From assembly GCF_054482595.1 (NCBI RefSeq), contig NZ_CM137008.1: a stretch of DNA of 64,000 nt; one strand, given 5' to 3'. The position numbers and the translations under genes are program-made. The notes under the pieces are model-generated. The model saw nothing but the letters and a program-made list of their open reading frames with translations. It did no database searches and had not been told where the DNA came from. Positions within the stretch are counted from its first letter, which is position 1, and every line of letters begins with the position of its first letter. Positions 3,213 through 25,094 of the stretch are shown piece by piece.

Positions 3213-3575
3213 ATGTTTCTAAACTATTTCGCGTTGGGAGTGCTGATCTTCGTCTTTCTGGTGATTTTTTATGGAATCATCGCGATACATGACATCCCTT
3301 ATCTGATTGCCAAAAAGCGCAATCACCCCCATGCCGACGCTATTCATACGGCGGGCTGGGTGAGCCTGTTTACTCTGCATGTTATCTGGCCGTTTCTGTG
3401 GATCTGGGCGACGCTCTATCAACCGGAGCGTGGCTGGGGTATGCAGTCACATGTTGCGTCGCAGGAGAAAGCAACTGACCCGGAAATCGCCTCACTTTCT
3501 GACCGAATTTCCCGGCTGGAGCATCAACTCGCCGCCGAGAAAAAGACTGACTATTCCACGTTCCCGGAGATCTAA
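3213..3575 (+). CDS. yibI: small inner-membrane protein (DUF3302 family), partner of YibH
   Basis: The 120-aa ORF opens [45 protein letters not shown]. It is a paralogue of the yiaW product at 21791 and ends 2 nt before yibH. Confidence 0.85.
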
Positions 3576-3577
3576 TT

Positions 3578-4714
3578 ATGGATCTATTGATTGTTTTAAC
3601 TTACGTGGCGCTGGCGTGGGCGGTCTTTAAAATCTTCCGCATTCCGGTAAATCAGTGGACGCTGGCGACGGCGGCGCTGGGAGGCGTGTTTCTGGTGAGT
3701 GGTTTGATTTTGTTGATGAACTACAACCACCCTTACACTTTTACCGCGCAAAAGGCAGTGATAGCGATCCCTATCACGCCACAGGTGACGGGAATTGTTA
3801 CTGAAGTCACTGACAAGAATAATCAGCTTATTCAAAAGGGCGAGGTGCTTTTTAAGCTCGACCCGGTTCGTTACCAGGCGCGAGTTGACAGACTTCAGGC
3901 TGACCTGATGACGGCGACGCATAATATAAAAACGCTGCGCGCCCAGCTCACTGAAGCGCAGGCCAACACCACCCAGGTTTCAGCGGAGCGCGACCGTCTG
4001 TTTAAAAATTATCAACGTTACCTGAAAGGCAGCCAGGCGGCGGTGAATCCGTTCTCGGAACGTGACATCGACGATGCGCGGCAAAATTTCCTCGCGCAGG
4101 ATGCGTTAGTGAAAGGCTCGGTGGCGGAGCAGGCGCAGATCCAGAGTCAGCTCGACAGTATGGTCAACGGCGAGCAATCGCAGATTGTGAGCTTAAGAGC
4201 GCAACTTACTGAAGCAAAATATAATCTTGAGCAGACTGTCATTCGCGCACCAAGCAATGGCTACGTCACTCAGGTACTGATCCGCCCAGGCACATACGCA
4301 GCTGCCTTGCCGTTGCGTCCGGTGATGGTTTTCATCCCCGAGCAAAAACGGCAAATTGTCGCCCAATTTCGGCAAAACTCGCTGTTACGTCTGAAACCTG
4401 GCGATGATGCGGAAGTGGTGTTTAACGCGCTACCTGGGCAGGTGTTCCACGGCAAACTGACCAGTATTTTACCTGTCGTGCCAGGCGGTTCTTATCAGGC
4501 GCAGGGGGTATTGCAATCATTAACGGTCGTGCCCGGCACGGACGGTGTGCTGGGAACCATTGAACTGGACCCTAACGATGATATCGATGCCTTACCCGAC
4601 GGCATTTACGCCCAGGTGGCAGTTTACTCCGACCATTTCAGCCATGTTTCGGTGATGCGAAAAGTGCTGCTAAGAATGACCAGCTGGATGCATTATCTTT
4701 ATTTGGATCATTGA
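3578..4714 (+). CDS. yibH: HlyD-family membrane-fusion-like protein
   Basis: The ORF is 378 aa, with an N-terminal TM segment, a long coiled-coil-like middle and a shared C-terminus ...[31 protein letters not shown]. It is a clear paralogue of yiaV at 22120. Confidence 0.88.
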
Positions 4715-5173
4715 GGGGGAAGGGGGAGATTATGGAACTTTGCTCCCTGTAAGGACTAATTATTTTTGCATATTATTTCATCGGCTGTGATGATTTTTCG
4801 TTAATATCCATTATGTTAAGAAGTTCGGGATGAGTGTGAACTCATTGGATTTTTTATCCGTCTTGATCTGCCGAAGGATCAGACTATACATTGTCGAGAT
4901 CGCAATGATGATATGAGTTGTTCCTCCTGCGACGGCTCTAATCAAAAAAGAGCAGGAGTGCTTTTCCATCTATTGCGATGATGGCTTTATTATCTGAAGG
5001 ATGACAGTCACATTTAAAAAATATTTAATCTATAGATCACAATGTAGGGTCATGGAATATATGTATACAACTATTTTCTTCTTCACTTTTAATTATCGTG
5101 TTCATTATAAAACCAAGTTAAAAAAACTCCTGGAGAGTGACTTATTAATATATTTTTAAATAAAATTAAGTTA

Positions 5174-5695
5174 TTATTCATCGATGCATTTTATAGAATC
5201 ATCAATGGCCATAATAGTACTATTAACTCTCCACTTTATATTTTTATCATCACTACAAATATTAACTGAATTTATATCAATGATTTTTTTATTCTTATCT
5301 TTTGTTTTATTTACTGTTTCAATGCAATCAGCGGCAAGTTGGAGTGGATTTAGATTTTTCAGATATGGTCTTATGATCTTTCCCTTACTTAATAAATAGC
5401 ATGTATAGGATTCGGAAAGTCCAGCATCTATTTTGTACCTCATTATATTAGATAAGGATGTGAGAAATTCCTTGTTATCATTCGCAGCCATATATGCCAG
5501 TCCGAGTTCAGCCTCTGCGGCCTTACAGGCAAAATAGCTAAGTGAACACGCTTTTCGTCCCTCTTTAGTACTGGCTGATATTAGTGCCCATAATATTGCT
5601 TTGTCTGCCAAATCTAACTCTCTCTGAAATTGTCTTGCAGTAACTGCACTCGCAGAAATAGAGAAAAAAAATACAATTGTTAATAACTTTGCCAT
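5174..5695 (-). CDS. putative secreted (periplasmic) immunity protein for the downstream-most orphan Rhs toxin
   Basis: The 173-aa ORF starts 5 nt after the orphan toxin stop (5701-5703). Its N-terminus MAKLLTIVFFFSISASA/VTA looks like a Sec signal peptide with an AxA site. It is AT-rich like the adjacent toxin tail. I recognise no catalytic motif. Confidence 0.6.
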   Translation of the reverse strand: MAKLLTIVFFFSISASAVTARQFQRELDLADKAILWALISASTKEGRKACSLSYFACKAAEAELGLAYMAANDNKEFLTSLSNIMRYKIDAGLSESYTCYLLSKGKIIRPYLKNLNPLQLAADCIETVNKTKDKNKKIIDINSVNICSDDKNIKWRVNSTIMAIDDSIKCIDE

Positions 5696-5700
5696 ATTTT

Positions 5701-6594
5701 TTAGTCCGTAACTGTTAATGTGCTATCTGGCTCTGAAAATATTAACTCATTTAATTTTTGCATGTCATTAGATGAACCAGTTATACAACCCTCGGAACAG
5801 AATCGAGGTCCTAAAGACGGACCGAAAGCGTTTAAACAACTATGTGTTAAAAATCCATCACGATTATATGTTTCTGTATTTGCTGACGGTACTAAACGTA
5901 TACCATTAGGTTTTCTATTGGTTGCTCCAGGACCATTAACATTCCAGCTCCATACCCCTTGAGGTATTGGACCTCTATTTTGTAAGTGTGTACAACCAGG
6001 ATTATTTTTACATTGCATATTATTACCATTATTACCAGAGGCGACAGGAATAGTAAGCACATCATAAGAGTTATCATCATTTTGCGTATCTGAAACGCAT
6101 GAAAGCATACTTAAAGTTATGCTGTATAAACAGGTCGCTAATCCCAACGGGTCAATATCAGTTATCGGATTCAACGGATACTGATAAAAATTCCATCCCC
6201 CTTTCAGCCCAATCGGATCCTGAGTGATATATCGCCCCTGCAGCGGGTCATAATAGCGGTGGCGGTTGTAATACAGGCCGGACTCCTCATCATACTGCTG
6301 CCCCGGCAGGCGGATAAGCTGCTGCAGCTGATGCGGGTTCTCTTCATTCAGCAGGTTGCCCCACTCATCGTATTCTGCGCACCATTCTGTAGCACCTTCC
6401 GTGCTGATAAGCGCCAGCGGCAGGCCGCGATGGTCGCAGTGGTACAGGTGGATTTTTCGCGCCGGCGTGTACACCGGGTCCATCTGGTTTTGCATCTGCG
6501 CCACCGTCAGGCCGCACGATGCCAGCCAGCGGCGGCTTTCCTCACTCACCCGGTCAGCCAGGATTTCACTTTCCAGCCGGTCGAGCATCTGCAC
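5701..6594 (-). CDS. orphan Rhs C-terminal fragment: about 150 aa of Rhs core, DPLGL, then a 145-aa toxin tail with an L,D-transpeptidase-fold (Tlde1/DUF2778-like) signature
   Basis: Residues (M)[23 protein letters not shown]...[27 protein letters not shown] repeat the rhsA core 3' end. DPLGL lies at 6139-6153. The tail (5704-6138) contains GPIPQGVW and FLTHSC-x13-SEGCI. There is no ATG with a Shine-Dalgarno at the 5' end; the frame opens just after a TGA and the first starts are GTG 6594 and ATG 6588. It occupies the position of K-12 yibJ. Confidence 0.75.
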
Positions 6595-6620
6595 CGTGCC
6601 GGCGGGAATCCCCCACTGTG
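6154..6620 (-). repeat. third copy of the rhsA core 3' segment (about 0.45 kb)
   Basis: It is near-identical at nucleotide level to 10319-10790 and 8448-8915. For example, ggatcctgagtgatata.cgcccctgcagcgggtcataatagcggtggcggttgtaatacaggcc is present in all three. Confidence 0.9.
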
Positions 6621-6635
6621 CATAGGCAACTCACG

Positions 6636-7478
6636 CTATGAACGCTTCAGCTTATCAATAGCGGAAGTTATAATTTCATTGTCATCAAACTTGTACAACA
6701 TAGTATCTAAAACAGGAAGTAGCGTTTTATCACCTAATTCACCCGCAGCTTCAATGATATCATCATAAACAGTATTTTTTTTTAACTCATCGCATAAAAC
6801 AGATAAAACCCTTTTATCTTTTCTGTAGGAAAGTCAGATTATTGCTTCAATACGGACTTCCTCATTTTTATCCTGAAGCATCTCCACAAAATAATCCCTA
6901 ATATCACTATTATCATATTTATTGATATTTATTGCAAATGCGGCCCAGTTTCTGACATCTCCATTTGGATCTTTTAACAGATTAATCAATAGTGGAATTG
7001 TTGCTTTATCATTGATAACAGAAATAGCAAATGCTGTAGCACGTCTGACATTAGTCGATTTATCAAAAGCAGTAATTTGAGATTGTTCTACTATTTTAGG
7101 TGAATAATTTGGGTTTTTCTTGCATCGCTGAGCCGTTGACTCGATTGCCGTAGCTCGAACGCAAGCGCTCTTATCATTCAATGCCATATTGTTCAAAATA
7201 TTAAAAACATTATCTTCGCATTTTTTGCAAATTTTTATTTGCCCGAGTATAAATGCTCCGATATCTCTACGGATATAATTTTTATCAGAGCAGAACTCAA
7301 TTGCCAATCTAACAGCGTCTTGCCCACCTCTTAACTGTAATACTCTGGCAGATGAAATCCTTTTCAAGGAATTGTGATCATCAAGTAAGCGAAATAATTC
7401 ATCATCATTTAGTTTCTTACATTGATTATATAAACCATACTCTTTACTTGCCTTTCTTTTCTGGTATGTATTTGACAT
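6636..7478 (-). pseudogene. yibA: HEAT-repeat protein YibA (K-12 RhsA-associated immunity-type gene) interrupted by an in-frame TGA
   Basis: MSNTYQKRKASKEYGLYNQCKKLNDDELFRLLDDHNSLKR... matches my memory of K-12 YibA (280 aa). The frame reads ...GAA GCA ATA ATC TGA CTT TCC TAC AGA AAA GAT, with TGA at 6834-6836. It continues in the same frame to TAG at 6636-6638, encoding ...LSYRKDKRVLSVLCDELKKNTVYDDIIEAAGELGDKTLLPVLDTMLYKFDDNEIITSAIDKLKRS. The total is 281 codons, the K-12 length. Confidence 0.85.
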
Positions 7479-7498
7479 TGCAGGAACCTCCACAAAGG

Positions 7499-7540
7499 CT
7501 ATCTTTTTTTATCGTTTGACTGTCTGGAGTCCTCCACCTA
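7499..7540 (-). other. relic of the 3' end of a K-12-type rhsA toxin tail, still 20 nt upstream of yibA
   Basis: The reverse strand reads TAG GTG GAG GAC TCC AGA CAG TCA AAC GAT AAA AAA AGA TAG, encoding ...SRQSNDKKR*. I recall this as the C-terminus of K-12 RhsA. The 20-nt spacer to the yibA ATG matches the K-12 arrangement as I remember it. Confidence 0.6.
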
Positions 7541-7582
7541 CTCTGCCATCAGCGCACACGATGTTTGATTATCCTTACATAC

Positions 7583-7966
7583 TTATTTTCCGTGGCCAAA
7601 ATTCAGAATTCTCCCATCATTTTTGCCTATTTCTATAATAAAAACCCCACCAGCAATTTGGTCTGAGTGAATGGTACCTTCAACAACCCAACTTGTTGTT
7701 AACTCAGTGATTTCGTATGGTTTTTCTTCTTCTGCGGCATCCTGTCCATAACGATTCTTAACATATATCTCAGCTAATTCCAATGCTATAGCTTTATTTT
7801 TAACCAAATTTCTAACGGTATATTTACCTTCACTTTCATACTTGCGCATTATTTTAATATTATTATTACACTGCGCCCATGTGTTGTATGTAAAAACAAA
7901 CAAAGATACAATGACACATTTCCTAAACAATATTTTTTTACATATTACCATGAACTCTGCAGACAT
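7583..7966 (-). CDS. YbbC/YhhH-type (NTF2-fold) Rhs immunity protein with probable signal peptide
   Basis: The 127-aa ORF contains ...[42 protein letters not shown]...[22 protein letters not shown]. This closely resembles K-12 YbbC/YhhH, the genes immediately 3' of rhsD and rhsB. The hydrophobic N-terminus is [24 protein letters not shown]. It overlaps the upstream toxin ORF by 29 nt, so the true start is uncertain (7966 or 7951). Confidence 0.75.
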
Positions 7967-9407
7967 TAGGTAATCCTTTTCCGTTTGTTATTTCCTTCCC
8001 GTGGTTATCTATTGCTTTAAAATTACCACTGGGCGTACCTAAATAAAATGACTTGATATTGTTATCTTTACTTTTAACTATTTTCTCATCTTTACCTGAA
8101 AATATTTCGTCCCAATATTCTCCATGACTATCTGCACCATGAGTATGATAAGCTGATACTTTCTCAGTACCATTAGGGCAAGGGCTATTGAATGGATATG
8201 ATCCTTTTCTTTCTCCTCGGTTAGGTGCTGTTGAGAAATATCTGCCACTATTATCCTTACATATTAAACCAGCGAACTCTTTATCTTCGCAAATAGATTG
8301 GCTATTTATTTTATTTAAGGCGTCATATGCGGTGCTATCTATAGAATCAAATTTATCTGGACCTATCATAGCGGATAGTGTGCCGCAAAGACCATTAGTA
8401 CATGCCCCCGATTTTGCATCCTCCCACATAGATAAACCCAGGGGGTCGATGTCTGATATCGGATTCAATTGATATCCATACAGGTTCCATCCCCCCTTCA
8501 GCCCAATCGGATCCTGAGTGATATACCTCCCCTGCAGCGGGTCATAATAGCGGTGGCGGTTGTAATACAGGCCGGACTCCTCATCATACTGCTGACCCGG
8601 CAGGCGGATGAGCTGCTGCAGCTGGTGCGGGTTCTCTTCATTCAGCAGGTTGCCCCATTCATCGTATTCTGCGCACCATTCTGTAGCCCCTTCCGTGCTG
8701 ATAAGCGCCAGCGGCAGGCCGCGATGGTCGCAGTGGTACAGGTGGATTTTTCGCGCCGGCGTGTACACCGGGTCCATCTGGTTTTGCATCTGCTCCACCG
8801 TCAGGCCGCACGATGCCAGCCAGCGGCGGCTTTCCTCACTCACCCGGTCAGCCAGGATTTCACTTTCCAGCCGGTCGAGCATCTGCACCAGCACCGGCGG
8901 GAACACCACACTGCCACCGTCTTCGCCGCCGGACTGCTGAAGGGCATCCGCCAGGCTGCGGCGCTGCGTTTTCGCCAGCTCACCGGTGGCAGTTTCGACC
9001 CTGATGAGTGGCGTGAAGCTCCCCGGCTGATAAATCGTCTGGATGCGGCTCCTGTCGTTCTGTATCGTGGTCAGCCGGTCGCCGTCCCAGCCGTACCAGG
9101 TCACTTGCGGTTTCCGTGACAGCGACATCCAGCCCGTCAGGTCCCGTTCACGCCGCCACACCCGTTTTGCCACCCTGCGGCCCAGCGGGTCGTAAAGATA
9201 GCGACTTTCGACCAGCGGCTCTGCATATTGTGTCCGCGTGTAGTGCACCAGCCGGTGCTGACTGTCGTAATGGTACCGGTGGGTGCGCTCATCATCCGTG
9301 CGGATAACCCCTTCCGGGATGAGGTCGGTTTTCTCCGTCAGCCTGCCGTGACGGTCATACCGGTAAAGATAGTGCGCGTCACGGGCGATACGGTTATCCG
9401 GCCACAT
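7938..9407 (-). CDS. orphan Rhs C-terminal fragment: about 325 aa of Rhs core, DPLGL, then a 164-aa RhsD/RhsB-type tail (DUF4329-like)
   Basis: [29 protein letters not shown]... duplicates the rhsA core. DPLGL lies at 8433-8447. The tail [17 protein letters not shown]...[15 protein letters not shown]...[23 protein letters not shown] resembles the K-12 RhsD C-terminus as I recall it. The first ATG is an internal core Met with no Shine-Dalgarno, so the fragment is probably silent unless recombined. Confidence 0.8.
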
Positions 9408-9497
9408 GCTGAGGGCGCTGTCCGGGTGCAGCTCCGGGTCGGGCAGGCGGTTACCTGCCGGGTCTGTGGCATACGGGATATCAATGCCCAGGTTACA
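8448..9497 (-). repeat. second copy of the rhsA core 3' segment (about 1.0 kb)
   Basis: It aligns with 10319-11367 with only scattered substitutions. Protein-level differences include RHGRL/RYGRL, EGVIRT/EGGIRT, ELAKTQ/ELARTQ and ATEWC/ATAWC. Similarity decays at [10 protein letters not shown] versus [10 protein letters not shown]. Confidence 0.9.
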
Positions 9498-9524
9498 TAT
9501 AATAATAAGAGCAATTAACTTAAT

Positions 9525-9851
9525 TTATTTGTTTATAATGCGCTTACTTAATACAAACCATTGAATATACCCTCCTGACAGAAAATAAAGCCATATTATT
9601 ATCGCCATAATATACTTACTATCAATCCTTACGCCAATAATGTCTGATACAGTCCCTATAAATATTAGAGCAATAAAGAATACTATGCCTGTTGGAAAAC
9701 ATATTACCATCATTCCATAAGACATGAGACTAATTAACTCGCTCACATCACGAGTGGAGTCTAATAGTGAAAGTCTATGCATGGAAAAGAATAGTATTAA
9801 AAGCGATAAAGCCAGCCATATAGCTCTGAATAAAAAAATAATATATTTCAT
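9525..9851 (-). CDS. small polytopic membrane protein, presumed cognate immunity (RhsI) for the rhsA C-terminal toxin
   Basis: The 108-aa ORF has three hydrophobic segments (IIFLFRAIWLALSLLILFF, MSYGMMVICFPTGIVFFIALIFIG, IMAIIIWLYFLSGGYIQWFVL). Its ATG (9849-9851) shares one nt with the rhsA TAA (9851-9853), reading TAATG. It is AT-rich. Confidence 0.7.
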   Translation of the reverse strand: MKYIIFLFRAIWLALSLLILFFSMHRLSLLDSTRDVSELISLMSYGMMVICFPTGIVFFIALIFIGTVSDIIGVRIDSKYIMAIIIWLYFLSGGYIQWFVLSKRIINK

Positions 9852-12800
9852 TACATCACTCCGGTGAATACAAATCTAATAAAACGTCCAATGTTATTTC
9901 CGGAGCACTTCATCTTACATGTTTCTAAAGAATCATTAGACCAGTCTTGGCAGTTTTTAAATAGCCCTAAATTTATAGGTGTGAATATATCAGGCAATAC
10001 AGAATAACGCGGCCTTACCTCTTTAAACTTCCCTTTTAAACAGTTCTCCACACAACTATTATCGGTTTCAACGAGGTCACAACGGCCAGCAGCTTCTTTT
10101 GTATCATTACTTGCTTTACCTGGCCCCCATAGACCATCTCCTTTTGATTCTCCCCGTTGGTCTTGGCCACCACAAGTATAGTCCCCTTTACCATCTGGGA
10201 CACAAAGATATTGATGATAGAACGGATTCCCCCATATATCTGGACCGCTTCTTTCACCAGTTCCGCCCATTGAATGCAGTGGCTTAATGCATTTTAGTGT
10301 TTCTAATCCTAATGGATCTATATTTGAGATCGGATTCAACGGATACTGATAAAAATTCCATCCCCCCTTCAGCCCAATCGGATCCTGAGTGATATACCGC
10401 CCCTGCAGCGGGTCATAATAGCGGTGGCGGTTGTAATACAGGCCGGACTCCTCATCATACTGCTGCCCCGGCAGCCGGATAAGCTGCTGCAGCTGATGCG
10501 GGTTCTCTTCATTCAGCAGGTTGCCCCATTCATCATATTCTGCGCACCACGCTGTTGCCCCTTCCGTGCTGATGAGCGCCAGCGGCAGGCCGCGATGGTC
10601 GCAGTGGTACAGGTGGATTTTTCGCGCCGGCGTGTACACCGGGTCCATCTGGTTTTGCATCTGCTCCACGGTCAGGCCGCACGATGCCAGCCAGCGGCGG
10701 CTTTCCTCACTCACCCGGTCAGCCAGGATTTCACTTTCCAGCCGGTCGAGCATCTGCACCAGCACCGGCGGGAACACCACACTGCCACCGTCTTCGCCGC
10801 CGGACTGCTGAAGCGCATCCGCCAGGCTGCGGCGCTGCGTTCTGGCCAGTTCACCGGTGGCAGTTTCAACTCTGATGAGTGGTGTGAAGCTCCCCGGCTG
10901 ATAAATCGTCTGGATGCGGCTCCTGTCGTTCTGTATCGTGGTCAGCCGGTCGCCGTCCCAGCCGTACCAGGTCACTTGCGGTTTCCGTGACAGCGACATC
11001 CAGCCCGTCAGGTCCCGTTCACGTCGCCATACCCGTTTTGCCACCCTGCGGCCCAGCGGGTCGTAAAGATAGCGACTTTCGACCAGCGGCTCTGCATATT
11101 GTGTCCGCGTGTAGTGCACCAGCCGGTGCTGACTGTCGTAATGGTACCGGTGGGTGCGCTCATCATCCGTACGGATACCCCCTTCCGGGATGAGGTCGGT
11201 TTTCTCCGTCAGCCTGCCGTAACGGTCATACCGGTAAAGATAGTGCGCGTCACGGGCGATACGGTTATCCGGCCACATGCTGAGGGTGCTGTCCGGGTGC
11301 AGCTCCGGGTCGGGCAGGCGGTTGCCCGCCGGGTCCGTGGCATACGGGATGCGGATATCCAGATTCGCTGCGGTGGTGTGAACGCCGGTCAGCCTGCCGG
11401 TGGTGCTGTAGCTGTAACTCCGGGTCTGGCGCGGGCTGCTGATGCGGATGAGTTCGCCGTTGTCGTTCCAGGTGTAATCGCGGTCATACTGCAGGCTGTT
11501 CAGGTGCTGACGCTGTAACTGCCCGGCAGGGGTGTAAGCGGTGGTGAGTTCATAACGACCGAAGCTGCGCAGCGTTTCCCGGTGCAGGCGGTCGCGGGTG
11601 AAATCCACCAGCGGTGTGTCGCCGAGCTTCATGCCTGCCAGCCAGCCGCTGCCGTAGGTCAGCCATTCCACGGCGGGCAGGCTGTCCGGTATACAGCGGT
11701 TCGCCAGTCCCTGCGCGTTGTACGCATGTCTGGTCTCATGCTGCCAGAGCAGTGCTTCCGTCTGCGGGTGATGCACCGTCTGGCGCTCACCGGTCAGGCG
11801 GCCTTTCTCATCATACCTGTAATGCACCGCTACCCGGTGCCCTTCGCTGATATGGCTGATGTCTGTCAGCCAGCCACGTTCGTCATACCGCCACCGCTCT
11901 GCGGTTTCACCCTTCACGGTGCGGTGCGTGAGGCGGTCTGCTTCGTCATAGTGCCAGTGGGTGACCAGACCCTCATCCTCGCTGCGGATAAGTTTGCCGG
12001 TCAGGTCGTGGTGATAACGCTGTGTGCGGCCGTCAAAGCCGGTTTCCTGTATCAGCCGGTCAAGTACATCGTAACGGAAGGTGGTGTGGCTGCCGTTTTC
12101 ACTGGTCAGGCGGATGACCCGTCCGGCAGCATCGTATTCCATACTGCGCGTCAGCCCGCCCTGCGTGGTACGGACGGCCTTTCCCCACGCATCGTACTGT
12201 GTCCCGTTTCTGCTGCCGTCCGGGGCAATGACGGCGGTCAGGTCACCGGCGATGTTGTATTCATACCGCGTTTCATGGCCCTGCGTGTCTTTCACGGCAA
12301 TTAACTGTCCACGGCTGTCGTATGCGCGGTACTGGCTCAGCCCTTCCTCGCGGTGCACCGCCGTCATCTGCCCGAAGCGGTCATGGTCATAACGGGTCTG
12401 GTAGCCGGAACAGTCGGTGAAGCTCAGCAACTGGCCGTAACGGCTCCACGTCATGGTTTTCCGGCTGCCGGTGGCATCGTCCGTTGCGCAGGGGAGGTCA
12501 CTGTGTGGATTATCATAACGGTAGCGGGTGATATCGCCGTCAGGGGCGGTTTCCTGAATCAGACGGCCGGATTCATCATATTCCCGGCGCAATTCCAGCC
12601 CGTCAGGCCCGGTGGCTGACGTTAACTGGTTGTGGTGGTTATAGTAAAACGCCGATGCCCTGCCATCCGGCGTGGTTATGCGCGTGATGAGGCCCGTCAC
12701 CACATCCGGGCTGTACTCTGTTGTCCTGCCTGCGGCATCCGTCTGTGCCCTGAGCCTGCCCACGGCGTCAAACTGACTCTGCGTGACGCTGCCGTCCGCG

Positions 12801-14035
12801 TGTTCCTTTTTCACCACCCGCTTCAGCCCGGCTTCGCCCTGCGTGTGCAGCACTTCACGGCGGTCCAGGCTGTCGGTGATGGTGATGCGGTCTTTCTCAT
12901 ACTGATACGTGTAGCTTAAGCCTGCCGGGTTTAGCTGTTCTGTCACCCGCCCGTCGCTGTCGTAACGGTAACGGATTTCCGGCCGGCCCGTGTGACGGTG
13001 CGCCACCATCCGGCCCCGGTATTTATCATCGTAAGTAAAGCTGCGCACCTGTGTATTGCTGCGGTCATACACTGCCGCCAGTTCGCCGCGCGGCGTCCAG
13101 CCATAGCGCACCAGCGGCGCGGCAGGTAAATTCTCCGGGTATTCCGGGTCGTGCGTCAGCCACACGGCAGACAGACGGATGCCGTTGTCCCGGCCATATT
13201 CGGTGTAACCCGGCAGGGTATCAGGAAAAGCGGACGGTTCCGTCCCGCCGGAAATGGCCTGCTGCCGGGCTTCTTCTGCCTGCTGCGCCTGCGTGGTCAG
13301 TACCAGCCGGAAGTGACGCCCGGCACCATCCGTCACGCCGGTGATTTCGCCGCTGAATTCACCGGCGGCTTCGCGGTGGAACGTCTGTGTGCGCCCGAAG
13401 CGGTCCACCAGCCCGGTCAGTACCCGGTACGGCGGCAGCGGCGCAGGCAGCACCTCATCCGCTTCCGGCACCCGCTCACACCACCACCACGGCCCCTGCG
13501 GACTGTTTGTCGCCAGATAACGATGCGGACTTAAGCGGAGTTCTTCCGGCAGCGCCTGCCAGAGTGCGGCCAGCCGGTGACCTTCATCCAGTTTCGCCAC
13601 GCCGCCGCGCACCAGCCACAGTGACTCGCTGCGGCTGTAACCGTCCTCACCGGGAAACAGGTGCTCAAAATACAGGCTTCTGCCGCCGTTATCACTGAGT
13701 ATCAGTGTGTTATCGCGCAGCTGTAAGCGGATATCCGCAGGCATTTTCCAGCCGGGGCCGAGGCTCCCCACCGGCGCGGGCGTTTTTGTCCGGTAACTGC
13801 TGTAGGTGCGGGAGAGGATGAACGGCAGCGGGGCGGGCAGGGCGATGTCGGTTTCACCGGGAAGGACCTTTGCACCGAGCAGGGGATTGACCGGATGGCC
13901 GGACGTCACTCCGCCGGGGCACCCCGAACAGGCCACACCGGTTGGGGCACCGATGCGCACCCCGGCTGAACCCTGAACAATGCTACCGCCATACTGCGTC
14001 ATGTCGCCCTGACGCGCCGCCGGTTTTCCGCTCAT
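9851..14035 (-). CDS. rhsA: Rhs family polymorphic toxin (PAAR-like N-terminus, YD-repeat shell, DPLGL, variable 150-aa Cys-rich C-terminal domain)
   Basis: The ORF is 1394 aa. The N-terminus is [29 protein letters not shown] (literal PAAR). Many YD-type repeats (xYxYDxxGRL) follow, then the core end ...[40 protein letters not shown] (DPLGL at 10304-10318) and the tail at 9854-10303. It is called rhsA from its position next to yibF and yibA, as in K-12. Confidence 0.93.
10319..11367 (-). repeat. rhsA core 3' segment, the master copy of the three direct repeats
   Basis: See 8448-9497 and 6154-6620. All three copies are in the same (minus-strand) orientation. Confidence 0.9.
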
Positions 14036-14263
14036 CTGCTCATCCTTGTTTTATCGAGTTATTTGTCTGCTTCCAGGCAAAACCCTACAGATTTATAAGA
14101 AAGCCTTAAGTGAGATATCCATCAGATAGAAACAATTAGGAAAATATTTATATCACCATGATAAATATGTGATTTATTTGGAAGTAACAAACCATCAACA
14201 TTTTCTGCCCTTTTTCCCATCACCAGGCCATACTGATATTTTTCCTCGCACAAAGGACTCGGC

Positions 14264-14872
14264 ATGAAACTCGTCGGTAGCTACACCAGCCCGTTTGTAC
14301 GCAAACTTTCTATTCTGTTGTTAGAAAAGGGCATAACTTTCGAATTTATTAATGAACTGCCCTATAACGCGGACAACGGCGTGGCGCAATTTAACCCGTT
14401 AGGAAAAGTGCCGGTGCTGGTGACCGAAGAGGGCGAATGCTGGTTTGATTCGCCGATCATCGCTGAATATATTGAATTAATGAATGTCGCTCCGGCGATG
14501 TTACCGCGCGATCCGCTGGAGTCGTTGCGGGTGCGCAAAATTGAGGCGCTGGCGGATGGCATTATGGATGCCGGGCTGGTATCGGTGCGTGAACAGGCGC
14601 GTCCAGCGGCGCAGCAGTCTGAAGATGAATTGTTACGCCAGCGGGAGAAAATCAACCGTAGTCTGGATGTGCTGGAAGGATATCTGGTCGATGGCACACT
14701 TAAAACCGATACGGTCAATCTGGCGACTATCGCCATTGCCTGTGCCGTCGGATATCTCAATTTCCGCCGCGTTGCGCCAGGCTGGTGTGTCGACCGCCCA
14801 CACTTAGTCAAACTGGTCGAAAACCTGTTTAGCCGCGAAAGTTTTGCTCGCACCGAACCGCCAAAGGCTTGA
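14264..14872 (+). CDS. yibF: glutathione S-transferase family protein
   Basis: The 202-aa ORF opens [31 protein letters not shown] (GST N-terminal thioredoxin-like motif). Length and context match K-12 YibF. Confidence 0.9.
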
Positions 14873-14969
14873 TGCGCGATATGTCCTCCTGACCCATCTC
14901 ACGTTACAATCCGTGGTTATGTTAAACGCCCTTCTCCGTGTGAGAGGGCCTTGATCAGCCAGGTTTCCT

Positions 14970-16361
14970 ATGACAACCGAAACGCGTTCCCTCTATAGTC
15001 AACTTCCGGCTATTGATCGCTTATTGCGCGATAGCTCCTTCCTTTCTTTGCGTGATACTTATGGTCACACCCGCGTGGTGGAATTGTTGCGTCAGATGCT
15101 TGACGAAGCGCGAGAAGTGATTCGTGACAGCCAGATGCTGCCCGCGTGGTGTGAAAACTGGGCGCAAGAAGTCGATGCCCGGTTGACGAAAGAGGCGCAG
15201 AGCGCGCTGCGTCCGGTGATCAACCTGACGGGAACCGTGCTGCATACCAATCTTGGGCGAGCTTTACAGGCGGAAGCTGCGGTGGAAGCCGTTGCGCAGG
15301 CTATGCGTTCGCCAGTGACCCTCGAGTACGATTTGGACGACGCCGGACGCGGACATCGCGATCGGGCGCTGGCGCAGCTGCTGTGCCGCATTACCGGCGC
15401 GGAAGATGCCTGTATCGTTAATAACAATGCGGCGGCGGTGTTATTGATGTTGGCGGCCACTGCCAGCGGGAAAGAGGTGGTGGTTTCTCGCGGCGAACTG
15501 GTGGAGATTGGCGGCGCGTTTCGTATTCCCGATGTTATGCGTCAGGCAGGCTGCACCCTACACGAAGTAGGGACCACCAACCGCACGCACGCGAATGATT
15601 ATCGTCAGGCGGTGAATGAAAATACCGCACTGTTGATGAAAGTACATACCAGTAACTACAGCATTCAGGGGTTCACCAAAGCGATAGACGAAGCTGAACT
15701 GGTGGCGCTCGGCAAAGAGCTGGATGTTCCCGTAGTGACTGATTTAGGCAGTGGCTCGCTGGTCGATCTTAGCCAGTACGGTTTGCCGAAAGAGCCAATG
15801 CCGCAGGAGTTGATTGCGGCGGGCGTCAGTCTGGTGAGTTTCTCCGGCGACAAGTTGTTAGGCGGGCCGCAGGCAGGAATTATCGTTGGTAAAAAAGAGA
15901 TGATCGCCCGCCTGCAAAGCCACCCGCTGAAACGTGCATTACGCGCGGATAAAATGACCCTCGCGGCGTTGGAAGCCACGTTGCGTCTTTATTTACACCC
16001 TGAAGCTCTGAGTGAAAAATTACCGACCCTGCGCCTGCTTACCCGCAGCGCAGAGGTCATTCAAATCCAGGCACAACGTTTACAGGCTCCCCTTGCCGCA
16101 CATTACGGCGCGGAGTTTGCGGTACAGGTTATGCCATGTCTTTCGCAGATTGGCAGTGGTTCGCTGCCGGTTGATCGCCTGCCGAGCGCGGCATTAACGT
16201 TTACACCCCATGATGGACGCGGTAGCCACCTTGAGTCATTAGCCGCCCGCTGGCGTGAATTGCCAGTGCCGGTGATTGGTCGTATTTATGACGGACGATT
16301 GTGGCTGGATTTACGCTGCCTTGAAGATGAGCAACGGTTTTTGGAGATGTTGTTGAAATGA
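14970..16361 (+). CDS. selA: L-seryl-tRNA(Sec) selenium transferase
   Basis: The ORF is 463 aa and contains ...[18 protein letters not shown] (PLP-Lys region). It overlaps selB by ATGA at 16358-16361. Confidence 0.95.
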
Positions 16362-18202
16362 TTATTGCGACTGCCGGACACGTTGACCACGGCAAAACAA
16401 CCTTATTGCAGGCGATTACTGGCGTAAATGCCGATCGTCTGCCGGAAGAAAAAAAGCGCGGCATGACCATCGATCTCGGCTATGCCTACTGGCCGCAGCC
16501 GGATGGTCGTGTGCCTGGTTTTATCGACGTACCCGGTCATGAAAAGTTTCTTTCCAACATGCTGGCGGGCGTTGGTGGTATCGATCACGCGCTGTTGGTG
16601 GTGGCGTGCGATGACGGCGTGATGGCACAGACCCGTGAGCATCTGGCGATTTTGCAGCTGACCGGTAACCCGATGCTGACAGTGGCGCTGACCAAAGCCG
16701 ATCGCGTGGACGAAGCGCGTGTTAATGAGGTTGAACGCCAGGTAAAGGAGGTGCTGCAGGAATACGGTTTTGCTGAGGCAAAACTGTTTATCACCGCAGC
16801 AACCGAAGGTCGGGGAATTGATGCCCTGCGCGAGCATCTGCTTCAGTTACCAGAACGTGAACACGCCAGCCAACATAGTTTCCGCCTCGCGATCGACCGC
16901 GCATTTACCGTAAAAGGTGCCGGGCTGGTCGTCACCGGTACGGCGTTAAGCGGGGAAGTGAAGGTAGGCGATTCACTATGGCTGACTGGTGTAAATAAAC
17001 CGATGCGCGTGCGTGCGCTGCATGCGCAAAACCAGCCAACAGAAACCGCTCATGCCGGGCAGCGTATCGCGCTTAACATCGCGGGGGATGCGGAAAAAGA
17101 GCAGATTAACCGTGGCGACTGGCTGCTTGCCGATGTGCCGCCAGAGCCGTTCACGCGGGTGATTGTCGAGCTTCAAACCCATACGCCGCTGACCCAGTGG
17201 CAGCCGCTGCATATTCACCACGCCGCCAGCCACGTTACGGGACGCGTTTCGCTGCTGGAAGATAACCTTGCCGAGCTGGTGTTCGACACGCCGCTGCGGC
17301 TGGCGGATAACGATCGCTTAGTGTTGCGCGATATCTCGGCCCGCAATACGCTGGCGGGGGCGCGTGTGGTGATGCTTAACCCGCCGCGTCGCGGTAAACG
17401 TAAGCCGGAATATCTGCAATGGCTGGCGTCTCTTGCACGGGCGCAGAGCGATGCCGATGCGTTATCTGTTCATCTGGAACGCGGAGCGGTTAACCTTGCG
17501 GATTTCGCCTGGGCGCGCCAGCTCAACGGCGAAGGGATGCGCGAACTGCTGCAACAGCCGGGCTATATTCAGGCTGGTTATAGCTTGTTGAATGCGCCAG
17601 TTGCCGCCCGCTGGCAGCGGAAAATTCTTGACACATTAGCGACTTATCATGAGCAACATCGCGATGAACCTGGTCCTGGGCGCGAACGTCTGCGACGTAT
17701 GGCGTTGCCAATGGAAGATGAAGCGCTGGTACTGCTGCTGATTGAAAAAATGCGCGAAAGCGGCGACATCCACAGCCATCACGGCTGGCTGCATCTGCCA
17801 GATCACAAAGCGGGCTTCAGCGAAGAGCAGCAGGCCATCTGGCATAAAGCAGAGCCGCTGTTTGGTGACGAACCGTGGTGGGTGCGTGACCTGGCAAAAG
17901 AGACGGGAACCGACGAGCAGGCAATGCGTCTGACGCTACGCCAGGCGGCCCAACAGGGGATAATTACCGCGATCGTCAAAGATCGTTATTACCGTAACGA
18001 TCGGATTGTCGAGTTTGCCAATATGATCCGCGATCTCGATCAGGAATGTGGTTCAACCTGCGCGGCGGATTTCCGCGATCGCTTAGGGGTTGGGCGAAAA
18101 CTGGCGATTCAAATCCTGGAATATTTTGACCGCATTGGCTTTACGCGGCGTCGCGGAAATGATCATTTATTGCGCGACGCATTATTATTTCCGGAAAAAT
18201 AA
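16358..18202 (+). CDS. selB: selenocysteine-specific translation elongation factor
   Basis: The ORF is 614 aa with G-domain motifs [16 protein letters not shown] and TKAD. Length matches K-12 SelB. Confidence 0.95.
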
Positions 18203-18255
18203 GGAAATGATTAATTAAGTTTTAAAATAAATTAATACAAAATTCTTATGATTTT

Positions 18256-18296
18256 AAAAAAAGCACATTGTTTAATGAATACAATGTGCTTTTTAT
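18256..18296. terminator. bidirectional-looking intrinsic terminator after selB
   Basis: A perfect 10-bp stem (agcacattgt at 18262-18271, acaatgtgct at 18281-18290) has a 9-nt loop. An A-run lies upstream and TTTT downstream. Confidence 0.7.
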
Positions 18297-18391
18297 TAGA
18301 TTAATTTTGCTAAACAATAATACTGATCATATTTTCGAATGAAAATCCTCAGTAAGCTGCCCGCCCTTTTTTACACTTTCAGGAGTGTGTT

Positions 18392-19543
18392 ATGGCAGCT
18401 TCAACCTTTTTTATTCCTTCTGTGAATGTCATCGGCGCTGATTCATTGGCTGATGCAATGAATATGATGGCAGAATATGGGTTTCGCCGTACATTGATTG
18501 TCACTGACAGTATGTTAACGAAATTAGGTATGGCGGGCGATGTGCAAAAAGCACTGGAAGAACGCAATATTTTTAGCATTATTTATGATGGCACCCAACC
18601 TAACCCCACCACGGAAAACGTCGCCGCAGGTTTGAAATTACTTAAAGAAAATAATTGCGATAGCGTGATCTCCTTAGGCGGTGGTTCTCCGCACGACTGC
18701 GCAAAAGGTATTGCGCTGGTGGCAGCCAATGGCGGCGATATTCGCGATTACGAAGGCGTTGACCGCTCTGCAAAACCGCAGCTGCCGATGATCGCCATCA
18801 ATACCACGGCGGGTACGGCCTCTGAAATGACCCGTTTCTGCATCATCACTGACGAAGCGCGTCATATCAAAATGGCGATTGTTGATAAACATGTCACTCC
18901 GTTGCTTTCTGTCAATGACTCCTCTCTGATGATTGGTATGCCGAAGTCACTGACCGCCGCAACGGGTATGGATGCCTTAACGCACGCTATCGAAGCGTAT
19001 GTTTCTATTGCCGCTACGCCGATCACTGACGCTTGCGCACTGAAAGCCGTGACCATGATTGCCGAAAACCTGCCGTTAGCCGTTGAAGATGGCAGTAATG
19101 CGAAAGCGCGTGAAGCAATGGCTTATGCCCAGTTCCTCGCCGGTATGGCGTTCAATAATGCTTCTCTGGGTTATGTTCATGCGATGGCGCACCAGCTGGG
19201 CGGTTTCTACAACCTGCCACACGGTGTATGTAACGCCGTACTGCTGCCGCATGTTCAGGTATTCAACAGCAAAGTCGCCGCTGCACGTCTGCGTGACTGT
19301 GCCGCTGCAATGGGAGTGAACGTGACAGGTAAAAACGACGCGGAAGGTGCTGAAGCCTGCATTAACGCCATCCGTGAACTGGCGAAGAAAGTGGATATCC
19401 CGGCAGGCCTGCGCGACCTGAATGTGAAAGAAGAAGATTTCGCGGTTCTGGCGACTAATGCCCTGAAAGATGCCTGTGGCTTTACTAACCCGATTCAGGC
19501 AACTCACGAAGAAATTGTGGCGATTTATCGCGCCGCAATGTAA
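18392..19543 (+). CDS. yiaY: iron-containing (group III) alcohol dehydrogenase
   Basis: The ORF is 383 aa, with [11 protein letters not shown] and HxxxH-type metal-binding regions ([15 protein letters not shown]). AGGAG lies upstream of the ATG. Confidence 0.9.
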
Positions 19544-19707
19544 TCATCATTCCAACAACGGCTGGCAAATTGTCAGCCGCTTTTTCAACTATCTCTGTAA
19601 TCCTTGCCCGTAAATTCGTGATAGCTGTCGTAAAGCTGTTACCGACTGGCGAAGATTTCGCCAGTCACGTCTACCCTTGTTATACCTCACACCGCAAGGA
19701 GACGATC

Positions 19708-21246
19708 ATGACCAACAATCCCCCTTCAGCACGTGTTCAGCCCGGCGAGTATGGTTTTCCTCTTAAGTTAAAAGCACGCTACGACAACTTTATTGGCGGC
19801 GAATGGGTAGCCCCTGCCGACGGCGAGTATTACCAGAACCTGACGCCGGTGACCGGGCAGCTGCTGTGCGAAGTGGCGTCTTCGGGCAAACGAGACATCG
19901 ATCTGGCGCTGGATGCTGCGCACAAAGTGAAAGATAAATGGGCGCACACCTCGGTGCAGGATCGTGCGGCGATTCTGTTTAAGATTGCCGATCGAATGGA
20001 ACAAAACCTCGAGCTGTTAGCGACAGCTGAAACCTGGGATAACGGCAAACCCATTCGCGAAACCAGTGCTGCGGATGTACCGCTGGCGATTGACCATTTC
20101 CGCTATTTCGCCTCGTGTATTCGGGCGCAGGAAGGTGGGATCAGTGAAGTTGATAGCGAAACCGTGGCCTATCATTTCCATGAACCGTTAGGCGTGGTGG
20201 GGCAGATTATCCCGTGGAACTTCCCGCTGCTGATGGCGAGCTGGAAAATGGCTCCCGCGCTGGCGGCGGGCAACTGTGTGGTGCTGAAACCCGCACGTCT
20301 TACCCCGCTTTCTGTACTGCTGCTAATGGAAATCGTCGGTGATTTACTGCCGCCGGGCGTGGTGAACGTGGTCAACGGTGCAGGTGGGGAAATTGGCGAA
20401 TATCTGGCGACCTCGAAACGCATCGCCAAAGTGGCGTTTACCGGCTCAACGGAAGTGGGCCAACAAATTATGCAATACGCAACGCAAAACATTATTCCGG
20501 TGACGCTGGAGCTGGGCGGTAAGTCGCCAAATATCTTCTTTGCTGATGTGATGGATGAAGAAGATGCCTTTTTCGATAAAGCGCTGGAAGGCTTTGCACT
20601 GTTTGCCTTTAACCAGGGCGAAGTTTGCACCTGTCCGAGTCGTGCCTTAGTGCAGGAGTCAATCTACGAACGCTTTATGGAACGCGCCATCCGCCGTGTC
20701 GAAAGCATTCGCAGCGGTAACCCACTCGACAGCGTGACGCAAATGGGTGCGCAGGTTTCTCACGGGCAACTGGAAACCATCCTCAACTACATTGATATCG
20801 GTAAAAAAGAGGGCGCAGACGTGCTCACCGGCGGGCGGCGCAAGCTGCTGGAAGGCGAACTGAAAGACGGCTACTACCTTGAACCGACGATTCTGTTTGG
20901 TCAGAACAATATGCGGGTGTTCCAGGAAGAGATTTTTGGCCCGGTGCTGGCGGTGACCACCTTCAAAACGATGGAAGAAGCGCTGGAGCTGGCGAACGAT
21001 ACGCAATATGGCCTGGGCGCAGGTGTCTGGAGCCGCAACGGTAATCTGGCCTATAAGATGGGGCGCGGCATTCAGGCCGGGCGCGTGTGGACCAACTGTT
21101 ATCACGCTTACCCGGCACATGCGGCGTTTGGCGGCTACAAACAATCAGGCATTGGACGCGAAACCCACAAGATGATGCTGGAGCATTACCAGCAAACCAA
21201 GTGCCTGCTGGTGAGCTACTCAGATAAACCGTTGGGGCTGTTCTGA
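19708..21246 (+). CDS. aldB: aldehyde dehydrogenase B
   Basis: [33 protein letters not shown]... gives 512 aa from the ATG at 19708, preceded by AAGGAG. The ALDH motifs ELGGKSP and EVCTCPSR are present. The 558-aa track ORF is a 5' over-extension. Confidence 0.93.
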
Positions 21247-21249
21247 TGT

Positions 21250-21365
21250 AAGAAGCTGGTCGCATCGGGTATTCATTGCCTGATGCGACGCTTACGCGTC
21301 TTATCATGCCTACGGGGACCTGACCGTAGGCCGGATAAGGCGTACACGCCGCATCCGGCATAAAC
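21250..21365. repeat. REP/BIME elements downstream of aldB
   Basis: gcctgatgcgacgcttacgcgtcttatcatgcctac and gtaggccggataaggcgtacacgccgcatccggca are canonical REP palindromic units. Confidence 0.8.
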
Positions 21366-21464
21366 AAAGCGCACGTTGTTACAATTTACGTTTTAAACCT
21401 ACGTGTGCAATAACCCAGACTACGCCAACAAAAGTGCGTTTCTGGGGCGTGTTTTGCCAGGAGT

Positions 21465-21608
21465 TTAATCTCGCGTTTCGATGGTGAGCGGGCAAACCAG
21501 ACCGTAAATCACCATTGGTATTCCGAGGACAATCAGCAATAAACGGTAGATTATTGAAGGTTTAATACGCTTAATCTGCATTGTGGATGTTTTACGGTTT
21601 TTAATCAT
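21465..21608 (-). CDS. candidate 47-aa single-TM small protein (hypothetical)
   Basis: My own translation gives MIKNRKTSTMQIKRIKPSIIYRLLLIVLGIPMVIYGLVCPLTIETRD*. It has a basic N-terminus and one hydrophobic helix. It is below the ORF-track cutoff and I see no convincing Shine-Dalgarno. Confidence 0.25.
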   Translation of the reverse strand: MIKNRKTSTMQIKRIKPSIIYRLLLIVLGIPMVIYGLVCPLTIETRD

Positions 21609-21790
21609 AAATTTGGCCAATAGTTCCATTATTTCAATATGATAAGCCTCGACCTGTTAAAAAGCCAGGCAGCACACTTCAGGAAGTATATAAAAAACAA
21701 TATGTCGTTATATAAATAAGGAAATTGCACTGCATCATGGCATTTCATAATATGCGTTAATTGTTCTTTTTTATATTCTCTGAGGGAAAT

Positions 21791-22114
21791 ATGTTCCTGG
21801 ACTATTTTGCACTGGGAGTGCTTATTTTTGTATTTCTGGTGATATTCTATGGGATTATTATTTTACATGATATTCCCTACCTGATTGCTAAAAAACGTAA
21901 TCATCCTCATGCCGACGCCATTCATGTTGCAGGTTGGGTGAGTCTTTTTACGTTACATGTTATCTGGCCGTTTTTGTGGATTTGGGCCACGCTTTACCGC
22001 CCGGAGCGGGGATGGGGAATGCAAAGCCATGATTCATCCGTTATGCAACTGCAACAGCGCATTGCCGGGCTGGAGAAACAGCTCGCCGACATCAAATCCT
22101 CTTCTGCCGAGTAA
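21791..22114 (+). CDS. yiaW: small inner-membrane protein (DUF3302 family), partner of YiaV
   Basis: [45 protein letters not shown]... gives 107 aa from the ATG at 21791, with GAGGGA upstream. Confidence 0.88.
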
Positions 22115-22119
22115 TACTT

Positions 22120-23256
22120 ATGGATTTACTGATTATTTTGACCTATGTGGCTTTTGCATGGGCAATGTTTAAGATCTTCAAAATTCCCGTAAATAAATGG
22201 ACCATTCCCACAGCGGCCTTGGGTGGAATATTTATTGTCAGCGGTCTAATTCTGTTAATGAACTATAACCATCCGTATACCTTTAAAGCGCAAAAAGCGG
22301 TTATTTCTATTCCTGTTGTCCCACAGGTGACTGGTGTGGTGATTGAAGTGACGGATAAGAAAAATACGCTGATTAAAAAAGGTGAAGTGCTATTTCGACT
22401 GGACCCGACGCGTTATCAGGCGCGGGTGGATCGGCTGATGGCGGATATCGTTACCGCAGAACATAAACAGCGGGCGTTGGGCGCAGAGTTAGATGAGATG
22501 GTGGCGAATACTCAGCAGGCAAAGGCCACGCGGGATAAATTCGCTAAAGAGTATCAGCGTTACGCACGCGGCAGCCAGGCGAAAGTAAACCCGTTTTCAG
22601 AACGCGATATCGATGTGGCGCGGCAAAATTATCTGGCGCAGGAAGCCTCCGTAAAGTCATCGGCAGCGGAACAAAAACAGATCCAGAGCCAGCTGGATAG
22701 CCTGGTGTTGGGTGAACATTCTCAAATCGCCAGCCTGAAAGCGCAGCTCGCGGAAGCAAAATATAACCTTGAGCAGACGATAGTGCGTGCGCCGAGCGAT
22801 GGTTATGTGACCCAGGTACTGATTCGTCCGGGTACCTATGCCGCGTCGCTGCCGCTACGTCCGGTGATGGTGTTTATACCCGATCAGAAACGACAAATCG
22901 TGGCGCAGTTCCGTCAGAACTCCTTGCTGCGCCTGGCTCCCGGCGATGATGCGGAAGTGGTATTTAACGCTCTGCCAGGCAAAGTGTTCAGCGGTAAGCT
23001 GGCAGCCATTAGTCCAGCTGTTCCCGGCGGAGCTTATCAGTCGACCGGCACCTTACAGACGTTAAACACAGCGCCGGGTTCAGATGGCGTTATCGCGACC
23101 ATTGAACTGAATGAGCACACTGATTTGAGCGCTTTACCAGACGGTATTTACGCCCAGGTGGCGGTCTACTCTGATCATTTCAGCCATGTCTCGGTGATGC
23201 GCAAAGTGTTATTACGTATGACCAGCTGGGTGCATTACCTTTATCTCGATCATTAA
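22120..23256 (+). CDS. yiaV: HlyD-family membrane-fusion-like protein
   Basis: The ORF is 378 aa and a paralogue of yibH, with the same length and C-terminus. Confidence 0.9.
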
Positions 23257-24227: not shown

Positions 24228-24350
24228 CGCAACAGCCCAATTATATATAATTTTATATATTACTATATAAATATGAATCTTGCACCGGAGAAATTGTAAG
24301 CATTACTATGCCGACTCTTTTTTATCTTATTTTAAAATGGAATACCGGAC

Positions 24351-25091: not shown

Positions 25092-25094
25092 TTC

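Follow-up and report, generated by a model that had tools for sequence, protein, structure and literature searches.

The yibIH and yiaWV gene pairs of Escherichia coli: two long-diverged copies of a DUF3302-HlyD operon

Introduction

How are two look-alike gene pairs, set some 17 kb apart on one chromosome, related to each other, what might they encode, and does their repetition put the DNA between them at risk? The question is raised by a stretch of 64,000 nucleotides (nt) from contig NZ_CM137008.1 of the RefSeq assembly GCF_054482595.1, which we refer to throughout as the window. Within it, yibI-yibH and yiaW-yiaV each join a gene for a small DUF3302 protein to a gene for a protein of the HlyD, or membrane-fusion, family. 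The window is E. coli DNA, and over 21.6 kb it matches strain XH990 at 100% identity; the RefSeq annotation of that strain gives the same four genes, with the same starts, under the labels "DUF3302 domain-containing protein" and "HlyD family secretion protein". Both pairs are known, annotated y-genes of E. coli K-12 and are already known as operons.

An original prediction made from the sequence alone described the function of these genes as essentially uncharacterised, and the literature that we searched agrees: it assigns no function to either pair, reports incidental phenotypes and uses only, and names no pump for YibH or YiaV. The DUF3302 family has essentially no literature of its own beyond a passing mention in a gene-description table, and a 2024 review of the E. 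coli y-ome counts yibH and yibI among a cluster of genes still uncharacterised (PMC11551758). A genomic-SELEX table lists yibIH and yiaWV as sigma-70 transcription units and marks the promoter regions of yiaWV and yiaT/yiaU as H-NS associated (PMC3946193). YiaU, encoded beside yiaV, has been renamed LpsR and regulates yiaT and the waa operon (PMC9068703). Growth in mixed biofilms mildly induced yiaV (PMC3646849). A clone evolved in macrophages acquired an IS1 insertion in yiaW, which was not responsible for the phenotype under study (PMC5495878), and yibIH was dispensable for a nitric oxide-scavenging activity (PMC5320621).

The explanation that best accounts for the locus is that the pairs are ancient paralogues of a single two-gene operon, which would supply a periplasmic adaptor of the EmrA/AaeA class together with its own small inner-membrane DUF3302 subunit. 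Taken as a whole, we put the probability of this reading at roughly 55%. Its statements on the identity and evolution of the two operons are considerably firmer, and we make them with high confidence.

Results

The pairs are paralogues encoding a DUF3302 protein and an HlyD-family protein

YibH and YiaV align end to end without a gap and are identical at 291 of 378 positions (77%, E = 0), while YibI and YiaW share 85 of 113 residues (75%, E = 2e-62) with one gap of 8 amino acids (aa) in the C-terminal tail. With the Pfam domains of the four products and the location of all four genes on the plus strand, these alignments bear out the claim of two paralogous DUF3302/HlyD-like pairs that share gene order and run in direct orientation; pairwise alignment had been proposed as a check, and the similarity is highly significant, far beyond chance. 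The open reading frames give a second gene of 378 aa in both pairs, and all six of the identical peptide runs quoted in the original prediction occur in the alignment of YibH with YiaV. Spacing, which had been called the same, is similar rather than identical, with 2 nt between the yibI stop and the yibH start and 5 nt between the yiaW stop and the yiaV start. In both pairs the two genes are probably translationally coupled.

Nucleotide divergence had been judged substantial, and calculation agrees. The yibH and yiaV genes are identical at 789 of 1137 nucleotides (69.4%), with 77%, 88% and 43% identity at codon positions 1, 2 and 3, respectively. The proportion of nonsynonymous differences (pN) is 0.158, against a saturated synonymous proportion (pS) of 0.78; for yibI and yiaW the values are 0.075 and 0.80. 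With pN so far below pS, both pairs are under strong purifying selection. Identity is higher over the final ~90 nt of yibH and yiaV (4613-4714 and 23155-23256), at 86% overall and 70% at third positions compared with 69% and 43% for the whole gene, although the rise is not significant after allowing for ~350 overlapping windows; it could reflect codon constraint on an invariant C-terminal tail or an old, small conversion event.

By profile match, YibI and YiaW are full-length members of DUF3302 (PF11742), scoring 140 and 146.7 bits against a cutoff of 32 and both covering positions 1-76 of the 77-position model. The family is small, with 816 clusters (50% identity, E <= 0.001) in a set of 1.84 billion representatives, and no fusion occurs among the 150 matches listed, all of which are <=229 aa. 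Alignment of 20 diverse members reveals two hydrophobic helices linked by a conserved loop ([15 protein letters not shown]), with P29, A33, H38, P39, A43, W49, S51, W59, P60 and W65 invariant, followed by a variable C-terminal tail that carries a short leucine-zipper-like, coiled-coil-like motif. Comparison of the profile with PDB sequences found no solved relative; weak matches to the helices of microbial rhodopsins (E ~7e-4) were read as hydrophobic composition, not homology.

The large proteins belong, again by profile, to the HlyD/membrane-fusion protein family (TC 8.A.1). YibH and YiaV match CusB_dom_1 (56.7 and 57.3 bits, cutoff 26.5), HlyD_D23 (42.1 and 44.6 bits, cutoff 30) and HlyD_3 (33.2 and 27.3 bits, cutoff 22.2), and their top NCBIfam models are EmrA/EmrK, MdtN and AaeA. 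On the RND-type adaptor model TIGR01730 (cutoff 94.9) YibH falls just above the line at 99.9 bits and YiaV just below it at 88.1, and no RND pump is adjacent. Their best solved relative is EmrA (8zar, E = 1.7e-11). The alignment spans residues 54-285 and needs one 2-aa gap, which means that lipoyl halves and alpha-hairpin match those of EmrA in length. Hydropathy indicates two N-terminal hydrophobic segments, at about residues 1-24 and 27-49, rather than a single anchor. Among 12 divergent family members, including alphaproteobacterial proteins at 40-46% identity, mean conservation is 0.78-0.84 in the two N-terminal helices and the short loop between them, and 0.83 in the C-terminal tail (residues 346-378). 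An AlphaFold2 (AF2) model of the YibH monomer, built from YibH and YiaV aligned, reached a mean pLDDT of 48.7 and a pTM of 0.32, with a confident hairpin (residues 96-218, pLDDT 74-89). PADLOC defence models gave nothing meaningful, the only hits being two coiled-coil-type matches at E ~0.005.

DUF3302 and HlyD genes form a conserved two-gene cassette

Genomic context was compared at 80 loci from species-representative genomes and at a further 80 metagenome loci picked with a divergent query. An HlyD gene directly follows the DUF3302 gene in 78 of the 80 genome loci, the two exceptions being a 433-bp contig and an internally deleted locus of Pseudocitrobacter cyperus that is described below. 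Of the metagenome loci, 69 extend far enough downstream to judge, and 67 of these show the same order; one exception, from a marine sample, has a gene for an IS4-family transposase between the two (locus L095, 8430-9749). The adjacency is near-universal from Enterobacterales to Alphaproteobacteria, and since the flanks vary among genera, it is the DUF3302-HlyD pair itself that forms the conserved unit. The 433-bp contig (L020) is a low-coverage piece of a Myxococcus assembly bearing an enterobacterial-type YibI (73% identical), and is probably contamination. In a Pantoea strain (L067) the pair lies on a 666-kb plasmid.

Neither pair in the window adjoins a transporter gene or a gene for a TolC-type outer-membrane factor, and a transporter in the same operon, usual for the HlyD family, is lacking in both. 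The original prediction was right on this for both pairs, with the amendment that yiaWV sits in a block with the regulator gene yiaU and the outer-membrane protein gene yiaT. Elsewhere, LysR-type regulators are the commonest non-syntenic neighbours, occurring at no fewer than 15 genome loci in varied contexts and at further metagenome loci. Envelope-protein neighbours also recur, MipA-family YiaT among them, each confined to a few lineages. Four loci have a DUF3313 gene beside the pair, lying directly upstream in the same direction at three of them and divergent at the fourth, and a Porin_2 protein was seen once. The four DUF3313 genes (L074 7307-7960, L116 7309-7962, L055 7193-7861, L075 6984-7652) accompany divergent paralogue lineages, often with a divergent LysR gene, and DUF3313 may be a third component in those lineages.

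Several apparent pumps were discarded on inspection. Large genes directly upstream of the pair in L083, L086 and L091, which belong to a divergent subfamily, encode an MscS-type channel, an MltF-like transglycosylase and an isoamylase, and an EmrAB-like MFS-plus-HlyD operon beside the pair in Yersinia vastinensis is convergent to it and complete alone, and was taken as coincidental. In four marine loci a gene for a 490-520-aa AAA ATPase lies near the pair with purT, on differing sides and in two arrangements (L098 5255-6814, L095 5268-6755, L140 10841-12310, L142 5969-7438), which could represent shared synteny or a functional link.

A possible export adaptor with a membrane-embedded partner

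From these features a mechanism can be proposed, although only tentatively and with its chances put somewhat short of even. The two N-terminal helices and conserved C-terminal tail of the adaptor would dock on the DUF3302 protein to form a membrane base, a proposal prompted by the concentration of conservation in the N-terminal helices and loop and in the C-terminal tail. A hairpin of EmrA length could then reach an outer-membrane channel, for which TolC is the obvious candidate, and the assembly would serve as the adaptor module of an envelope-spanning export machine. The transporter that energises it would be encoded elsewhere in the genome (orphan FUSC/PET proteins such as YccS and YhfK would be speculative candidates), and the nearby LysR-type regulators may control expression, by analogy with aaeR-aaeXAB. 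In that p-hydroxybenzoate efflux operon the gene for a small membrane protein stands directly before the adaptor gene, and the regulator is likewise of the LysR type.

Comparison with characterised systems marks both the strength and the limits of the analogy. Like AaeXAB, the pairs described here place a small membrane-protein gene directly 5' of a gene for an EmrA-class, inner-membrane-anchored adaptor, have a LysR-type neighbour, and encode adaptors with AaeA among their best NCBIfam matches. They differ in that the small protein has DUF3302 as its sole Pfam match and is not of the AaeX family, in that no AaeB-type (FUSC/PET) pump gene follows yibH or yiaV, and in that yiaU is convergent and downstream whereas aaeR is divergent and upstream. 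EmrA of EmrAB-TolC (8zar, 8zal) resembles YibH and YiaV in its inner-membrane anchoring and in the equal length of its lipoyl halves and hairpin; however, no MFS pump gene adjoins yibIH or yiaWV, and the two N-terminal hydrophobic helices and conserved 33-aa C-terminal tail lie outside the EmrA alignment. MdtN of MdtNOP is the first or second NCBIfam match (111 bits, residues 38-299), but far under the equivalog cutoff of 376, and genes for MdtO and MdtP are not adjacent.

A number of observations weigh against our reading. Neither pair has an experimental link to transport, and the mechanism is a prediction from sequence. Both proteins score far below the cutoffs of the specific families they most resemble, with 113.5 (YibH) and 111.1 (YiaV) bits on the EmrA/EmrK model TIGR00998 (cutoff 390.8) and 75.1 and 62.3 bits on the AaeA equivalog (cutoff 400); they are not members of the EmrA/EmrK, MdtN or AaeA families, and with neither an AaeX-family protein nor a downstream AaeB gene the pairs are not AaeXAB-type systems. 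A conserved TolC-docking tip would predict a conserved alpha-hairpin, yet the hairpin is the least conserved part of the adaptor (0.57-0.62). The AF2 model is poor outside the hairpin, which leaves the placement of the transmembrane (TM) helices and C-terminal tail to be drawn from sequence. No pump is conserved beside the pair in ~160 loci, and the sole locus with a gene for a TolC-type OEP protein is L086, where it lies three genes downstream of the pair; the five genes of that soil-metagenome locus (8001-13498) run co-directionally as DUF3302, HlyD, DUF3300, DUF2950 and OEP. On the evolutionary side, the tree presented below was built by a distance method alone (neighbour-joining), and if YiaV changed in a burst early on, the split could appear older than it really is.

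The strongest competitor, which we regard as unlikely, dispenses with a pump. The DUF3302 protein and the adaptor, with two TM helices each, would form the entire inner-membrane base, possibly as a ring of 4-TM units, and the self-contained envelope module would act as a passive or proton-motive-force-gated conduit, or as a scaffold across the periplasm, anchored to partners that are in the outer membrane or associated with peptidoglycan. The missing pump at the ~160 loci fits this idea, as do the low conservation of the hairpin and the strongly conserved short interhelix loops of both proteins. The recurrent non-regulatory neighbours are envelope proteins (MipA-family YiaT, and DUF3313 in its four loci) rather than pumps, and the Porin_2 protein, MltF-like lytic transglycosylase and MscS-type channel, each seen once, are in keeping with it. 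The recorded phenotypes are envelope-related: deletion of yibH in Klebsiella pneumoniae reduces plaque formation by evolved phages (PMC11796411), and deletion of yiaW raises transformation efficiency, as cited at second hand in PMC12844161. A more specific form, in which the pair is a self-sufficient, pump-less machine that works with different outer partners in different lineages (MipA-type YiaT, a DUF3313 protein, a porin or a TolC-type channel), is less probable again. What holds us back is that the neighbour associations are each restricted to a few lineages and that neither an energy source nor a substrate can be proposed. To our knowledge, all characterised HlyD-family adaptors (TC 8.A.1) work with a transporter. 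Unlinked partners are moreover common in E. coli, where tolC is linked neither to acrAB nor to emrAB. We prefer an export adaptor whose transporter would be encoded at a distance.

The split between yibIH and yiaWV is old

Dating by synonymous change is precluded by saturation, pS being already ~0.75 between E. coli and Citrobacter orthologues, and pN and a tree were used instead. A neighbour-joining tree was built from 38 HlyD partners encoded at the loci compared. The YiaV proteins linked to aldB formed a single clade in 100 of 100 bootstraps, and in 95 the YibH-type proteins, among them those of Yersinia, Serratia, Pantoea, Rahnella and Budvicia, all grouped together to the exclusion of YiaV. 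The pN between YibH and YiaV (0.158) exceeds that between YibH of E. coli and its Yersinia and Serratia orthologues (0.11-0.12). The split is old, and reflects either the horizontal acquisition of one pair or an ancient duplication with many later losses.

By comparison, it is highly improbable that the pairs arose by local duplication recently, within Escherichia, and that one copy then diverged fast. A local origin would agree with the closeness of the pairs, which lie ~8 kb apart where the Rhs element is missing, but the topology expected of such an event appeared in just 1 of 100 bootstraps. YiaV is about equally far from every YibH-type protein (pN 0.15-0.17), and its lineage has no raised rate, with a pN of 0.035 between the YiaV proteins of E. 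coli and C. amalonaticus compared with 0.064 between the YibH proteins of E. coli and Citrobacter. Both pairs, moreover, occupy the same relative positions in Citrobacter, Pseudocitrobacter and other genera.

yibIH is core and yiaWV belongs to an accessory block

Among 5426 complete E. coli genomes, yibIH is core, with coverage of at least 80% in 5383 (99%), and yiaWV is accessory (3769, ~70%). Genomes with any match are nearly equal in number for yiaWV (3800) and yiaU-yiaT (3783). Strain IPCEC48 lacks the entire yiaW-yiaV-yiaU-yiaT block, with a GH127 gene directly after aldB: its match to the window breaks off at 21313 and starts again at 25164, and both edges of the block (21314-25163) fall in palindromic repeats of the repetitive extragenic palindromic (REP) type (Table 1). 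Genomes with only one pair, for which the original prediction had suggested a search, therefore exist in the form of yibIH without yiaWV. Several Citrobacter and related species carry the block at this same position behind aldB, so that its absence from ~30% of E. coli is most simply a deletion. An independent, internal deletion is present in P. cyperus (L036, 8330-8533), which leaves yiaW whole but fuses the first 28 codons of yiaV to the final 43 of yiaT; yiaU is gone completely, and so is the greater part of both yiaV and yiaT.

These losses, together with the use of yibH as a neutral integration site (PMC5852967), can be cited for regarding one or both pairs as functionless, decaying relics. 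We find the idea barely credible: the reading frames are intact, the 378-aa length is constant across Enterobacterales, pN lies far below pS, yibIH is retained in 99% of genomes, and the pair is conserved out to Alphaproteobacteria.

Table 1. Positions in the window of the two gene pairs and of the features that define the yiaWVUT block.
Feature	Position	Strand	Description
yibI	3213-3575	+	120 aa, DUF3302 protein; open reading frame, Pfam DUF3302 140 bits, RefSeq annotation
yibH	3578-4714	+	378 aa, HlyD/membrane-fusion-family periplasmic adaptor, EmrA/MdtN/AaeA class
yiaW	21791-22114	+	107 aa counted from ATG; DUF3302 paralogue of yibI
yiaV	22120-23256	+	378 aa; HlyD-family paralogue of yibH
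yiaU	23253-24227	-	LysR-type regulator; same present-or-absent block as yiaV
yiaT	24351-25091	+	MipA/OmpV-family outer-membrane protein, Pfam MipA 178 bits; last gene of yiaWVUT block
REP-type palindromic repeats after aldB	21277-21360	none	left edge of yiaWVUT block
REP-type palindromic repeats after yiaT	25139-25230	none	right edge of yiaWVUT block

The two copies do not act as recombination substrates

The interval between the pairs measures 17,076 bp (4715-21790), in line with the 17 kb first proposed, and holds the Rhs locus, yibF, selA, selB, yiaY and aldB; the order yibIH ... selAB-yiaY-aldB-yiaWV recurs in Citrobacter, Pseudocitrobacter and other Enterobacteriaceae. Efficient RecA-dependent exchange usually needs a minimum of roughly 25-30 bp of perfect identity and tolerates a divergence of only a few percent. 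The suggestion that the copies could mediate duplication or deletion of this interval by homologous recombination, for which one can cite their direct orientation and the one genome of 5425 with two selAB places, has next to no chance of being right. At 69% DNA identity their divergence is far past that tolerance, and the longest perfectly identical runs, 20 bp in yibH/yiaV and 18 bp in yibI/yiaW, stop short of that minimum. The long, near-identical tracts of recombinogenic direct repeats are absent, the pairs do not cross-match (a megablast search with either finds a median of one place per genome), and a sliding-window test found no significant gene-conversion tract between yibH and yiaV. 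The intervening selAB is retained in 5425 of the 5426 genomes, at 5426 places in total, and the true edges of the present and absent states of yiaWVUT lie in REP elements, not in the paralogues. The two pairs are too diverged to recombine, and are distinct in regulation and distribution.

Other features of the locus

The yiaV and yiaU genes are convergent with a 4-nt overlap (23253-23256), and the pair is among candidate excludons (PMC12288877). Between aldB and yiaW, inside the present-or-absent block, RefSeq annotates a 47-aa hypothetical protein on the minus strand (21465-21608, WP_152936587.1); the open reading frame called mechanically there is of 54 aa and hydrophobic. An Rfam scan of 2600-25400 gave no match. 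Consensus scans for promoters and terminators around the two operons showed no clear excess over shuffled controls: promoters numbered 6 versus 4.6 and 7 versus 6.8, and terminator-like sites, at about twice expectation, every one lay inside a gene. Neither set was used.

Content between the pairs varies as well. The Rhs region (4715-14263) comprises an Imm57 immunity gene, RHS fragments, a yibA pseudogene with an internal stop, yhhH, a partial rhsB, ybfB and a full-length Rhs core gene. All of it is gone from IPCEC48, where yibF follows yibH after ~70 bp (L002, 8015-8086), and many other genomes match it only in part. IPCEC48 also has a Fic-family gene between yiaY and aldB (L002, 13496-14791) that is absent from the window, and other block-less genomes among the matches listed likewise name a Fic-family protein under the match.

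Discussion

For genome stability the answer to the question posed at the outset is negative: it is the REP elements and the Rhs element, not the paralogous pairs, that delimit structural variation here. The interest that remains lies in the DUF3302-HlyD cassette as a conserved, unstudied and apparently pump-less module. Two of its properties offer concrete starting points for experiment, the obligate two-gene arrangement across Proteobacteria and a conservation signature that resides in the membrane-embedded parts of the proteins rather than in the hairpin. If the less favoured idea of a pump-less machine were true, the cassette would add a new functional class to the membrane-fusion-protein systems, one present in E. 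coli in two versions that diverged long ago.

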